From a virus: a stretch of DNA of 64,000 nt. How positions within the stretch are numbered: the stretch's first letter is position 1; each line of letters opens with the position of its first letter. The stretch spans positions 96,001-160,000 of IMG/VR virus record IMGVR_UViG_3300028197_000003; one strand, 5' to 3'. Below the pieces are notes generated by a model. The model did not search any database. It was not told the origin of the DNA and saw nothing but the letters and a program-made list of their open reading frames with translations. A program made the position numbers and the translations under genes. This document shows, one piece after another, positions 42,263 through 44,080 of the stretch.

Positions 42263-43371
42263 AGTTTCTCATTGATCTAACAGATCATTGTAACTCCAAG
42301 TGTCCTCTATGTGCTAGGCATAAGACATCATATAATGATGAGGTTGCGGTGCTTGCACCTGACCCATCAATGAACCTGTCAAAGATTTCACTTGATCAAT
42401 GGAAGACATGGTTCCCACAAAAGACCCTTGAGAAGACAGAGTTGATCTACTTCCAAGGGTCTTTTGGTGAGCCAACATTGTGTGATGATCTGCTTGAGAT
42501 ATATGCCTATACTCTAAAGTCAAATCCCAATATTGTTTTCCAAATGAGTACCAATGGAGGCACTCGTGACGATGCATTTTGGGGAAGACTTGGTGCTCTC
42601 ATGGGAGCATCACATAAAGATAGTTTCCTCATCTTTTCTATTGACGGTCTAGAGGATACGCTGCAGCATTACCGCGTAGGTGTGGACTATAAGAAGGTGA
42701 TGAGGAGTGCTAAAGCATTCATTGCGGCAGGTGGTCCTGCTGTCTGGAGGATGCTAGTCTTCAAACATAACCAACATCAGATAAAAAGATGTAAGACGTT
42801 GAGTAAACTGTGGAAGTTCAAAGACTTTCAACATACTCGTGTCAATGATATGTATGACGCTAGTGGTCGTGGTGATGGTAAATTTACGTACTCATACAGA
42901 GATAAGGTGCATACCTTACAAGTAGCAGACGATCCTGACCATGTGTACCACCCAGACCCCGTAGCAGAGGACTCAGAGGTGGTGTGCCGCTATAAGCATA
43001 GCAAAGGTACTCCTGGTCAACTGAGGATCGATAGCAGGGGTGTGGTGCATGCCTGCTGCTTCCATCAGTCACGCCTTAGGTTCTTCTACCCTGGATATTA
43101 TATTGACAATGATCCTGATGCACCTGCTGTCTTCCGTGACATCAAAAACCCAAACAAGGGAGTGGGTGCAGAATACATGCAAAAAGTTTTCTGGGACAGC
43201 GTTATCCCTTTGATTGAAGAGCAGGGAGGTATCAAATCTATCTCATTGGAACACAAATCGTTACAAGAGGTGCTACAGACTCCCTTTTTCCAGCATACTC
43301 TGGTAGACTCTTGGAGTAGTAAACCACACATCTGTGCGGACTATTGTGGGAAGAAAAGACGTGTCGATTGA
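42259..43371 (+). CDS. radical SAM protein with C-terminal Cys cluster
   Basis: CNSKCPLC, GSFGEP, STNGG, SIDG; C-terminal C...CC...C...C. Confidence 0.85.
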   Translation: MKFLIDLTDHCNSKCPLCARHKTSYNDEVAVLAPDPSMNLSKISLDQWKTWFPQKTLEKTELIYFQGSFGEPTLCDDLLEIYAYTLKSNPNIVFQMSTNGGTRDDAFWGRLGALMGASHKDSFLIFSIDGLEDTLQHYRVGVDYKKVMRSAKAFIAAGGPAVWRMLVFKHNQHQIKRCKTLSKLWKFKDFQHTRVNDMYDASGRGDGKFTYSYRDKVHTLQVADDPDHVYHPDPVAEDSEVVCRYKHSKGTPGQLRIDSRGVVHACCFHQSRLRFFYPGYYIDNDPDAPAVFRDIKNPNKGVGAEYMQKVFWDSVIPLIEEQGGIKSISLEHKSLQEVLQTPFFQHTLVDSWSSKPHICADYCGKKRRVD

Positions 43372-43395
43372 TACTGACGTTCTTCTCTATATAAT
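43368..43395 (+). promoter_or_regulatory. sigma70-type promoter of the riboswitch leader
   Basis: TTGATA-16 nt-TATAAT. Confidence 0.65.
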
Positions 43396-43403
43396 ATAAC
43401 ATC

Positions 43404-43455
43404 ATGCGAATCGTTCATCCCCGTTGAGGGGACGCAAGTAAGTCGCGGAACGGAG
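43404..43455 (+). ncRNA. glutamine riboswitch-like aptamer 1 (variant)
   Basis: CGTTC(43412-16)/GAACG(43448-52); TCCCC/GGGGA stem; CGCAAGTAAG linker; GCGA/TCGC possible pseudoknot. Confidence 0.6.
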
Positions 43456-43645
43456 CCGTTCATCCCAATGCTTGAAATACTTCTGTATTCATCACTCACC
43501 TGTCAACAAGCTGATACAATCATGCTGAAGATGAAAGCAAACGAGAATCTCTCAAATGCTTTCAAGGTAGAGTTGATAGAGACCGTAAAGGAATCTACAC
43601 CAGAATGTCGCTGGTATTGGGACGCACACGACTGAAGGAACGGGG
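43456..43645 (+). ncRNA. glutamine-II (Downstream-peptide) riboswitch-like aptamer 2 with a 150-nt loop
   Basis: CCGTTCATCCCA...TGGGACGCACACGACTGAAGGAACGG matches the remembered CGUUCA-stem-CGCA..CGACUGAAGGAACG consensus. Confidence 0.7.
43468..43635 (+). CDS. 55-aa peptide nested within aptamer 2 (absent from the ORF track)
   Basis: MLEILLYSSLTCQQADTIMLKMKANENLSNAFKVELIETVKESTPECRWYWDAHD; GGAG 12 nt upstream. Confidence 0.7.
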   Translation: MLEILLYSSLTCQQADTIMLKMKANENLSNAFKVELIETVKESTPECRWYWDAHD

Positions 43646-43676
43646 ACTAAAAAACCCATCCTTTAGGAGACCTACA

Positions 43677-43841
43677 GTGAACACACTGACATTGATCCGG
43701 AATCAGATTGAAAAGGCAGCACGTCTTCATGACGCACAAATTGCTCACACTTCCTATCGTGGTGTGAAGTATGAATGCCTTGAAACTAATGAGGAAACTC
43801 ATGGTACCTTCTGCTATCGGGGTCGCACTTACACAAAGTGA
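43677..43841 (+). CDS. DUF4278-like small protein
   Basis: GTG start with AGGAGA Shine-Dalgarno; YRGVKY and YRGRTY motifs; lies downstream of the aptamers. Confidence 0.75.
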   Translation: MNTLTLIRNQIEKAARLHDAQIAHTSYRGVKYECLETNEETHGTFCYRGRTYTK

Positions 43842-43882: not shown

Positions 43883-43911
43883 AAGGGAAGGTTTGACACC
43901 TTCCCTTTTTT
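43883..43911 (+). terminator. intrinsic terminator
   Basis: AAGGGAAGGT-TTGAC-ACCTTCCCTT followed by a T-tract. Confidence 0.85.
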
Positions 43912-43921
43912 GTTTTATAAT
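43893..43921 (+). promoter_or_regulatory. consensus sigma70 promoter overlapping the terminator
   Basis: TTGACA-17 nt-TATAAT with the -35 box in the hairpin loop. Confidence 0.8.
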
Positions 43922-43927
43922 ACAACC

Positions 43928-44080
43928 ATGGAACGAGACAAACTCAAGATTATTGTTTCCGATTTGGAAATGCTTCTCAGTGCTCTCAAAGCAGAGGTCT
44001 ACTCTGATGTGGCGTCTTACCGTTTCGACGAGTGTGACCCTGTTGAGCAAAACTACGACGAAATTTACGAAGGTCCATGA
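43928..44080 (+). CDS. conserved small acidic protein (50 aa, absent from the ORF track)
   Basis: MERDKLKIIVSDLEMLLSALKAEVYSDVASY...; its stop overlaps the thyX ATG. Confidence 0.7.
   Translation: MERDKLKIIVSDLEMLLSALKAEVYSDVASYRFDECDPVEQNYDEIYEGP

Follow-up and report, generated by a model that had tools for sequence, protein, structure and literature searches.

The leader of a small DUF4278/IF17-like gene in a T4-like cyanophage is best explained as a single large glutamine riboswitch of type I (the glnA type), interlocked around a complete protein-coding gene that fills one of its arms, and we hold with moderate confidence that it acts as a switch with two outputs. The leader lies in a window of 64,000 nucleotides (nt), which corresponds to bases 96001-160000 of the IMG/VR record IMGVR_UViG_3300028197_000003, a complete virus of 192,351 bp. 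Positions given below are those of this window, and the features of the unit are all on its plus strand. The window comes from a T4-like cyanophage: it carries cyanomyovirus markers (the PhotoRC-II RNA and ThyX), and its relatives have T4-like neighbours. In the favoured explanation, the element is a mini-operon of about 500 nt, with the nested gene and the DUF4278/IF17-like gene behind a promoter with an NtcA-type box. It forms a self-contained unit between a radical-SAM gene, which ends at 43371, and the next promoter. A previous examination of the letters alone (hereafter the sequence-only reading) had listed the promoter, the motifs CGTTC (43412-43416) and GAACG (43448-43452), TCCCC and GGGGA, a split half-aptamer, an open reading frame (ORF), and a GGAG (43452-43455) as its Shine-Dalgarno sequence (SD). 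We found all of these again, and assembled them into another fold.

At the Rfam gathering threshold, the whole window yields the PhotoRC-II RNA only, and no glutamine family. A permissive scan matched positions 43410-43456 to RF01739, partially, with 29.2 bits (gathering score 35), and to RF01704 with 27.8 bits (gathering score 33), both with E-values around 1e-4. The window falls short of the threshold because the P3 helix of the aptamer encloses 183 nt (43446-43628), the ORF insert among them. Natural relatives that lack the ORF insert served in place of an artificially shortened window leader. In phage ACG-2014f (L006), the same leader precedes the same gene, with a GAAA tetraloop in place of the nested ORF. 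It reaches 41.1 bits against RF01739, above the gathering score, as a single aptamer in the nested register described below, and its minimum free energy (MFE) fold computed with ViennaRNA follows the same register as the Rfam alignment. Together with the sub-threshold matches in the window, this bears out the glutamine-riboswitch leader that the sequence-only reading had proposed, by the covariance-model search without the insert that it had recommended. Such plain leaders account for about 6% of the approximately 237 non-redundant copies.

The window leader itself has the organization of type I. A P1 helix of CGUUC and GAACG closes the aptamer (43412-43416 with 43638-43642), a P2 hairpin follows directly after CGUUCA (43418-43432), P3 sits in a three-way junction between AAGUA (43436-43440) and GAAG (43634-43637), which form loop E, and the whole is placed in the 5' leader of a DUF4278-like gene. 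What it lacks is a score of at least 35 bits, given the partial match mentioned above. The P2 helix that type II (RF01704) builds around a GGAACG pseudoknot loop is not formed, since the alignment to that model contains non-canonical pairs. The leader as a whole folds with z = -4.85. These results point to one large type-I riboswitch, and we infer that it binds glutamine.

Following the predicted structure from the 5' end, the outer P1 strand CGUUC (43412-43416) pairs with GAACG (43638-43642) over a span of 227 nt. The pairs C-G, G-C, U-A, U-A, and C-G are each formed in 83 or 84 of 84 sequences, the register is that of the Rfam type-I alignment, and the 3' strand is supported by this alignment and by the pairing in relatives. 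The P2 hairpin UCCCC-GUUGA-GGGGA (43418-43432, with arms TCCCC at 43418-43422 and GGGGA at 43428-43432) is present in the Rfam alignment and in the MFE fold, and its pairing is kept despite variation in stem and loop. Next comes J2/3, the linking strand with the 5' half of loop E: CGCAAGUA (43433-43440), invariant in 56/56 and 85/85 copies, aligns with the type-I consensus CGGAAGUA. P3 pairs AGUCG (43441-43445) with CGACU (43629-43633), with 100% of the cells paired. The sequence-only reading had suggested that GTCG (43442-43445) could pair with CGAC (43629-43632). This pairing is real and is the P3 of the Rfam type-I model, with two compensatory pairs (U-A to A-U and G-C to U-A, in two variant rows) and some G-U variants. 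Every variant of the 5' strand (GACU for GUCG) is matched by AGUC for CGAC, in three unique variant copies.

The P3 arm contains a second GAACG/CGUUC hairpin and a stem, P2', which closes around a gene of 55 codons. The inner hairpin GAACG-GAGC-CGUUC (43448-43461, predicted at -5.2 kcal/mol) has the GGAG (43452-43455) in its stem and loop. In the MFE fold, the 5' strand of P2', UCCCAAUGCU (43463-43472), holds the start codon and pairs with GGUAUUGGGA (43613-43622). A 5-bp core of P2' is conserved in relatives across the insert of about 150 nt, and its pair 4 changes from C-G to U-A in 16/56 sequences. Of the flanking stem for which the sequence-only reading had asked for covariation, this core is thus kept, while the extension to 10 bp is local. 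The inner linking strand CGCACA (43623-43628), which also provides the codons A-H of the peptide, shows only an A/C change at one position in all copies. The second half recognized as split in the sequence-only reading corresponds to CCGTTCATCCCA (43456-43467) and TGGGACGCACACGACTGAAGGAACGG (from 43618). A second GAAGGAACGG in the genome (73473-73482, minus strand) has no partner motifs and was set aside as a chance occurrence.

The four P1-type strands can be combined in two ways: nested, with the outermost strands together around the inner hairpin, or side by side as two aptamers. We compared both registers in an alignment of 85 sequences that is enriched for variant classes, collected with search patterns that left the partner strands free. 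In the nested register, 99.9% of the cells are paired and three pairs have changed on both sides (41 cells), giving a score of 0.091 against 0.029 ± 0.004 in shuffles, none of which reached 0.091 in 500 attempts. The side-by-side register has 91.1% of the cells paired and no covariation, and 37/85 sequences lose the innermost P1 pair in both aptamers. The closing pair of the inner hairpin is G-C in 48/85 sequences and C-G in the other 37. A further scan, aimed at CAACG as the inner 3' strand, returned at least 120 contigs. Among the matches listed, there are 99 unique copies; a partner could be identified in 95 of them, and it is CGUUG every time. The linkers of these copies vary, and their outermost strands are still CGUUC (or CGUUU) and GAACG. 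The nested register is favoured because these CAACG/CGUUG changes and those in P3 are compensatory only there. It is also the only register that brings together the two halves of loop E, and it agrees with the solved structure, where P3 projects to one side, away from the core in which the conserved nucleotides cluster (PMC6698751). The compensatory changes show that the predicted fold is interlocked, or domain-swapped, and amounts to a single type-I aptamer rather than the two separate tandem aptamers of the sequence-only reading. In L063 and four copies of the CAACG class, the loop of the inner hairpin is enlarged by an insertion of about 60 nt (AGCGTAAGCAATTAGA...), which separates GAACGG from the inner CGUUCA.

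The module in the P3 arm resembles a glutamine core itself. It keeps a CGUUC/GAACG helix, a bulged A, a stem, an ACGCA strand, and the invariant G after GAACG, and these core elements are invariant, not covarying. The module may therefore be a second glutamine pocket with a permuted order of strands, in which a hairpin GAACG-loop-CGUUC would replace the long-range P1. A more ambitious interpretation, which we regard as possible and clearly short of even odds, has two interlocked pockets, the outer of type I and the inner a permuted core, with a gene in the sensor; glutamine would switch two proteins in opposite directions, and each passing ribosome would reset the sensor. The partial genome of phage S-H68 (L005, 330-720) has the inner CGUUCA, a nested ORF of 65 codons, and the 3' core, and the outer 5' module is absent: a coding region stands in its place, and the nested ORF has a signal-peptide-like N-terminus.

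The nested gene (43468-43635) is an intact ORF of 55 codons. Its product belongs to phrog_504, has two invariant cysteines, and ends in DAHD. GenBank phage records list it as a hypothetical protein (T4-GC 430, 'gp197'). To collect homologues, we scanned IMG/VR with an exact pattern for the 3' core, which matched at least 120 contigs. Among the matches listed, there are 93 distinct peptides, all intact and 50 to 65 residues long, and the lengths of the inserts whose ORFs end at the core UGA differ by multiples of three. The peptides share a hydrophobic N-terminus, a cysteine, some 35 to 40 residues, a second cysteine, and a tail DA(N/H)D, which is dictated by the RNA core. Diversity at the three codon positions is 0.417, 0.213, and 0.545, the ratio of nonsynonymous to synonymous polymorphism (pN/pS) is 0.28-0.56, and the other two frames contain four to five stops. 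These patterns confirm, as far as sequence comparison can, that the nested ORF is a real gene under purifying selection, and they answer the question of its conservation that the sequence-only reading had raised.

No Pfam domain was found in the nested peptide, its PHROGs are of unknown function, and no source gives it a name. Its AlphaFold (AF2) model has three short helices with a mean confidence (pLDDT) of 77.6. A Foldseek search of the PDB with this model gave no match (best E-value 4.8), and the ESM Atlas returned unnamed clusters only. Profile comparisons of the three peptide families, in which cysteine aligns with cysteine, gave probabilities of 90% and 78% for two pairs and a weak match for the third, which suggests that they are remote homologues. 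With 50-75 codons, a conserved pair of cysteines, and a three-helix model, the ORF does not look like a leader-peptide attenuator of the trpL or mgtL type. The exact 3' half occurs in only three contigs labelled as 'genome', all of them from metagenome-assembled genomes (MAGs) and one of them, at 194 kb, as large as a phage genome; we judged them to be mis-binned phages and not cellular. A contig of 556 kb that encodes the nested peptide has T4-like phage genes around it.

The stretch 43412-43841 has matches in 415 phage records, with 261 GenBank cyanophage records covering at least 80% of it, and IMG/VR contains hundreds of contigs with the unit. The position of the gene relative to the RNA was studied in the approximately 237 non-redundant copies, among which 209 bear the ORF. 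In 203/209 copies, the ATG has an offset of 4 nt within the 5' strand of the stem that hosts the ORF. As stop, 200/209 use the U(G/A)A contained in the core CU(G/A)AAGG (175 UGA and 25 UAA), and 8 copies have a UAG in the 3' strand of that stem. In the window, the ATG (43468-43470) overlaps the TCCCAAT (43463-43469) that pairs with ATTGGGA (43616-43622), and the stop TGA (43633-43635) lies within the invariant CUGAAGG core, at the junction of P3 and loop E. The sequence-only reading had described exactly this, a complete 55-codon ORF with its ATG in a stem and its stop in the core, and the arrangement turns out to be general. In L168, CCGAAGG replaces CUGAAGG; the stop is lost and the nested ORF gains five codons before it meets a UAA in the loop of the platform hairpin.

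The pairing of the start codon is more variable. In the window, the MFE fold extends the P2' helix to 10 bp. Among relatives, 46/56 have the A of the AUG as pair 5 of P2', and the U and G of this codon are paired in about half. We thus rejected a 10-bp P2' that hides the whole AUG as a general rule, since it is found in the window and in a subset of relatives. The GGAG of the inner hairpin is associated with the ORF, being present in 159/209 ORF-bearing copies vs 1/14 plain copies. This supports its role as SD as suggested by the sequence-only reading, while the quarter of ORF-bearing copies without it led us to reject an obligatory SD. A second gene family, of 65-75 residues (phrog_6471), fills the loop of P2 in 48 unique relatives, including Syn19. 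There too, the ATG is at an offset of 4-5 nt in 44/48 copies and the stop falls inside the 3' strand in 45/48. The four combinations of plain and gene-bearing stems (P2 and P2') were all observed. The layout is shared far beyond chance.

Downstream of the aptamer, the strand CUGAAGGA (43632-43639) holds both the stop UGA of the nested gene (43633-43635) and the GAAG half of loop E (43634-43637). It can alternatively pair, at 43659-43666, with UCCUUUAG (43659-43669), which runs into the SD AGGAG (43665-43669) of the output gene; this partner is supported by the MFE fold and by the relatives. The resulting anti-SD hairpin is predicted at -15.5 kcal/mol (z = -3.5). Its core of 6 bp can form in 56/56 relatives, with only C/U changes opposite G, and the UAA variants have a U opposite the A in 25/25 cases, which share one context and count as one event. 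The output gene (43677-43841) starts with GTG and encodes a DUF4278/IF17-like protein of 54 residues, identified from its ORF and a profile match and assigned to phrog_545. Its score against the Pfam family DUF4278 (PF14105), 19.9 bits, is below the cutoff of 25.3. Among its relatives, 42/45 match DUF4278 at E ≤ 0.01, below the curated cutoff, and the homologue in P-TIM40 is annotated as DUF4278. Two YRG motifs occur in the window protein and in every copy examined.

The output side shows some diversity. A shorter double-YRG protein (47-56 residues, M..TYRG...YRG), which differs from the MNTL...HDAQI type, lies behind the same riboswitch in L007, L047, L058, L068, L071, and L131. In the hosts, short IF17 homologues without the C-terminal residues that contact glutamine synthetase have been described (PMC6212724). 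About a quarter of the relatives, among them Syn19 (L010, 906-935) and S-CAM9 (L008, 953-985), have a long-form platform with an extra hairpin between riboswitch and SD. It follows the pattern AACGGAUC[C-NNN]-GNRA-[NNN-G]AGAAGGUUAAU, its stem covaries (CAGC/GCUG, CUCG/CGAG, CACC/GGUG), and it is absent from the window. In P-TIM40 (L009, 1180-1374), a manA RNA (RF01745, 141.7 bits) directly follows the riboswitch/DUF4278 unit and precedes talC.

Known glutamine riboswitches suggest how such a leader could work. In the published model, a P1 stabilized by glutamine competes with a structure that occludes the ribosome binding site, which makes an ON switch (PMC6212724; PMC6698751), and the ON switching has been shown experimentally for the host gifB leader (PMC6212724). 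By analogy, the phage leader would also be an ON switch. When glutamine is scarce, CUGAAGGA would pair with UCCUUUAG and mask the SD of the DUF4278/IF17-like gene. Glutamine would draw GAAGGAACG into loop E and P1 and free this SD. At the same time, the folded sensor would bury the initiation region of the nested gene, as a 30S subunit at the nested AUG would require the inner hairpin and P2' to be open. Conversely, a ribosome that finishes the nested gene would unzip P2', P3, and loop E, and then sit on the anti-SD strand. With the start at the closing pair of P2' and the stop in the anti-SD strand, the geometry makes a folded sensor and translation of the nested gene mutually exclusive. The sensor can close only once the whole nested gene is transcribed. 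In low glutamine, the sensor would then be open, with the nested peptide made and the IF17-like gene masked; in high glutamine it would be closed, with less nested peptide and with the IF17-like protein made. The polarity proposed here for the nested gene is an extrapolation from the predicted fold.

Several observations weigh against this two-output switch. The Rfam scores of the window leader are below the curated thresholds. About 6% of the copies have no nested gene, which shows that the riboswitch itself can dispense with it. Because the anti-SD strand does not vary, classical covariation cannot prove its helix, and the correlation of UAA with U probably reflects one lineage. As for the start codon, most copies pair only the A of the AUG, and all three of its bases are paired in between about a quarter and a half of them. 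S-H68 lacks the outer 5' module, and only the register of the second aptamer could form there. Finally, a ribosome terminating in the anti-SD strand could unmask the downstream SD, giving IF17-like protein at low glutamine and blurring the reciprocal switch, and the first round of translation would be unregulated because the sensor folds only after the nested gene has been transcribed.

The effect of terminating ribosomes leads to a different account, a coupled operon in which both proteins rise together: the sensor stabilized by glutamine would expose the nested start, ribosomes terminating on the anti-SD strand would open the SD of the IF17-like gene, and both would be off without glutamine. 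The stop codon does lie inside the anti-SD strand in 200/209 copies and is kept as UGA or UAA, a single U-to-C loss just extending the ORF. Moreover, the predicted ligand-free fold structures both the GGAG (in a hairpin loop) and the downstream SD, and those glutamine riboswitches that have been tested behave as ON switches (PMC6212724). We consider this account unlikely because the inner hairpin and P2' belong to the folded sensor supported by covariation, so that glutamine should hide the nested start instead. In addition, a quarter of the ORF-bearing copies have no GGAG, and the gap of 41-75 nt between the stop and the next start is long for a tight coupling. One could also see the nested gene as a passenger, the product of genome compaction alone, in a riboswitch that controls only the DUF4278-like gene and where overlaps have no regulatory role. 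The hosting stems are indeed peripheral, their loops in plain copies range from 4 to about 45 nt, and plain and ORF-bearing forms coexist in the four combinations. Given that the peptide families look like remote homologues, one insertion and a duplication could have produced the shared geometry without selection for coupling. Yet, the positions of start and stop are fixed to the nucleotide in both arms despite less than 30% peptide identity, no copy has an untranslated spacer in the loop, and the GGAG follows the presence of the ORF. Since a translated loop of 150 nt must disrupt the sensor, some functional interaction is unavoidable, and we give the passenger scenario only a small chance.

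The sequence-only reading had instead imagined a two-stage sensor of two aptamers side by side, where the first gates the peptide through its SD and the split second one gates the DUF4278 gene. Each half-unit has a CGUUCA-stem-ACGCA...GGAACGG and, taken singly, is recognized as a weak glutamine aptamer, with CGUUCA, ACGCA, and the G after GAACG of the inner unit being invariant, as in ligand-binding cores. Only the second unit is kept in S-H68, and tandem glnA RNAs have been reported (PMC2864571). The breaks in the innermost P1 pairs of both aptamers, found overall in at least 95 unique copies, nonetheless make this arrangement very improbable: they are exactly compensatory for the nested register, the covariation of P3 joins the two units, and neither unit alone has both halves of loop E. 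The competing pairing of GCGA (43406-43409) with TCGC that was part of the same proposal also falls, as conservation does not extend into the 8 nt that precede the first CGUUC. The least credible option, to which we attach hardly any weight, is a decayed relic that no longer senses, conserved only through protein-coding and promoter constraints. It would fit the sub-threshold Rfam scores of the window, but the non-coding strands (the 5' strands of outer P1 and P3, J2/3, and the inner hairpin) are invariant or covarying in hundreds of copies, and insert-free relatives score above the Rfam threshold.

The unit is preceded by a sigma70-type promoter, TTGATA-16-TATAAT (43368-43395), with 11/12 matches to the consensus, and relatives have TTGAC(T)/TATAAT promoters at the same place. 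A predicted NtcA-type box, GTG-N8-TAC (43361-43374), overlaps the -35 hexamer. A perfect GTA-N8-TAC occurs upstream in 115/231 unique relatives vs 3/231 in a control region, and it starts 50-61 nt before the outer CGUUC, at distances that are fixed in relatives. NtcA control is known for the host gifB. The boxes suggest that the host NtcA also controls the promoter of the phage unit. On the other side, an intrinsic terminator-like hairpin followed by a T run (43883-43907) is predicted from the sequence. It is overlapped (43883-43921) by a perfect 12/12 promoter (TTGACA at 43893-43898, a spacer of 17 nt, and TATAAT at 43916-43921) of the next small gene (43928-44080). Further away, the PhotoRC-II RNA (RF01717, 32193-32290) matches over its full length with 70.9 bits.

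The evidence for expression of the unit is weak. Contigs from metatranscriptome RNA libraries, which come from relatives, run from the leader through the nested gene into the beginning of the output gene; they speak for presence and bridging only, not for starts, strand, expression level, or proof of transcription. None covers positions upstream of 43406, which proves nothing. The joint of 43456 to 43615 in the RNA-library contig X2 raised the possibility of RNA processing, which we rejected because it corresponds to genomic variants free of the insert.

The closest known system is the leader of gifB, encoding IF17, in Synechocystis sp. PCC 6803, a type-I glutamine riboswitch (Klahn et al. 2018, PMC6212724). 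The phage leader shares with the type-I glnA RNA the CGUUC/GAACG P1, the A followed by the P2 hairpin, the CG(G/C)AAGUA linking strand, P3, and the GAAG half of loop E. Also in common are the DUF4278/IF17-like gene downstream, a 3' core strand with its complement just upstream of the SD, and presumably the ON logic. In the host platform, C-GAAG pairs with CUUC-G next to the SD, in the same place as the phage anti-SD strand. The third base of J2/3 is C in the phage leader and G in the type-I glnA RNA. P3 is a simple hairpin of about 10-30 nt in the hosts, whereas the phage arm encloses 183 nt (43446-43628) that include another GAACG/CGUUC helix, another CGUUCA-stem-ACGCA unit, and an entire translated gene. 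We read 20 host copies from marine picocyanobacteria, out of the matches found in 42 of 121 genomes, and no arm of these copies contains an ORF. Two glutamine-core-like units per leader also occur in tandem glnA RNAs, an arrangement for which sharper, more digital control has been proposed (Weinberg et al. 2010, PMC2864571). In contrast to them, the phage leader interlocks its four P1 strands, and one or both units carry a gene in a stem-loop. The type-II riboswitch (Downstream-peptide, RF01704) shares the CGUUCA-stem-CGCA core and the association with DUF4278 peptide genes in marine picocyanobacteria, but its P2 around the GGAACG loop is not formed in the phage leader (27.8 bits, less than 33). 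The type-II aptamer can assemble from two RNAs (Huang et al. 2019, PMC6698751), which makes closure over a long range plausible in the phage leader.

Other regulatory RNAs combine structure with translation. In mgtL (the Mg2+ leader of mgtA in Salmonella) and trpL, translation of an ORF inside a regulatory RNA decides between alternative structures. These ORFs have fewer than about 20 codons and encode peptides without a known function of their own. The phage ORF shares with them the translation inside a regulatory RNA and differs by its 50-75 codons, its conserved protein family, its predicted fold, and its place, which takes up the entire loop of an aptamer stem. In T4-like phages, group I introns carry homing-endonuclease ORFs in peripheral loops. 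They provide a parallel for a protein gene in a peripheral loop of a structured phage RNA and for interference between translation and folding, but the phage unit is a ligand-sensing leader that encodes no mobility enzyme and has its start and stop codons in conserved helices and the core. Our search of the full-text literature, which did not cover Ames and Breaker 2011, found no description of a gene inside an aptamer or of the interlocked register. The matches concerned the ON mechanism and tandem glnA RNAs (PMC2864571), along with occasional references to phage-borne glutamine riboswitches. Phages are said to use riboswitch aptamers rarely. A survey counted only two glutamine aptamers in cyanophage genomes (McCown et al. 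2017, PMC5473149). The gene inside a glutamine riboswitch and the interlocked register thus appear to be a variant of a known riboswitch that we did not find described in the literature.

These results indicate that hundreds of cyanomyoviruses carry a glutamine riboswitch missed by standard covariance-model scans because a translated gene sits inside the aptamer. Riboswitch aptamers are usually treated as compact non-coding modules, from which the phage element departs. It suggests a new aptamer topology, supported by covariation, where one core lies within the P3 arm of another, and it offers a natural system to study how a single RNA accommodates both ribosome traffic and folding that depends on a ligand. 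The unstudied families of small proteins phrog_504/13397/6471 and phrog_545 are candidate phage tools acting on host nitrogen metabolism. If the two-pocket interpretation is true, the leader would be a translation-coupled riboswitch with two outputs, by which phages read and rewire the nitrogen status of their hosts.

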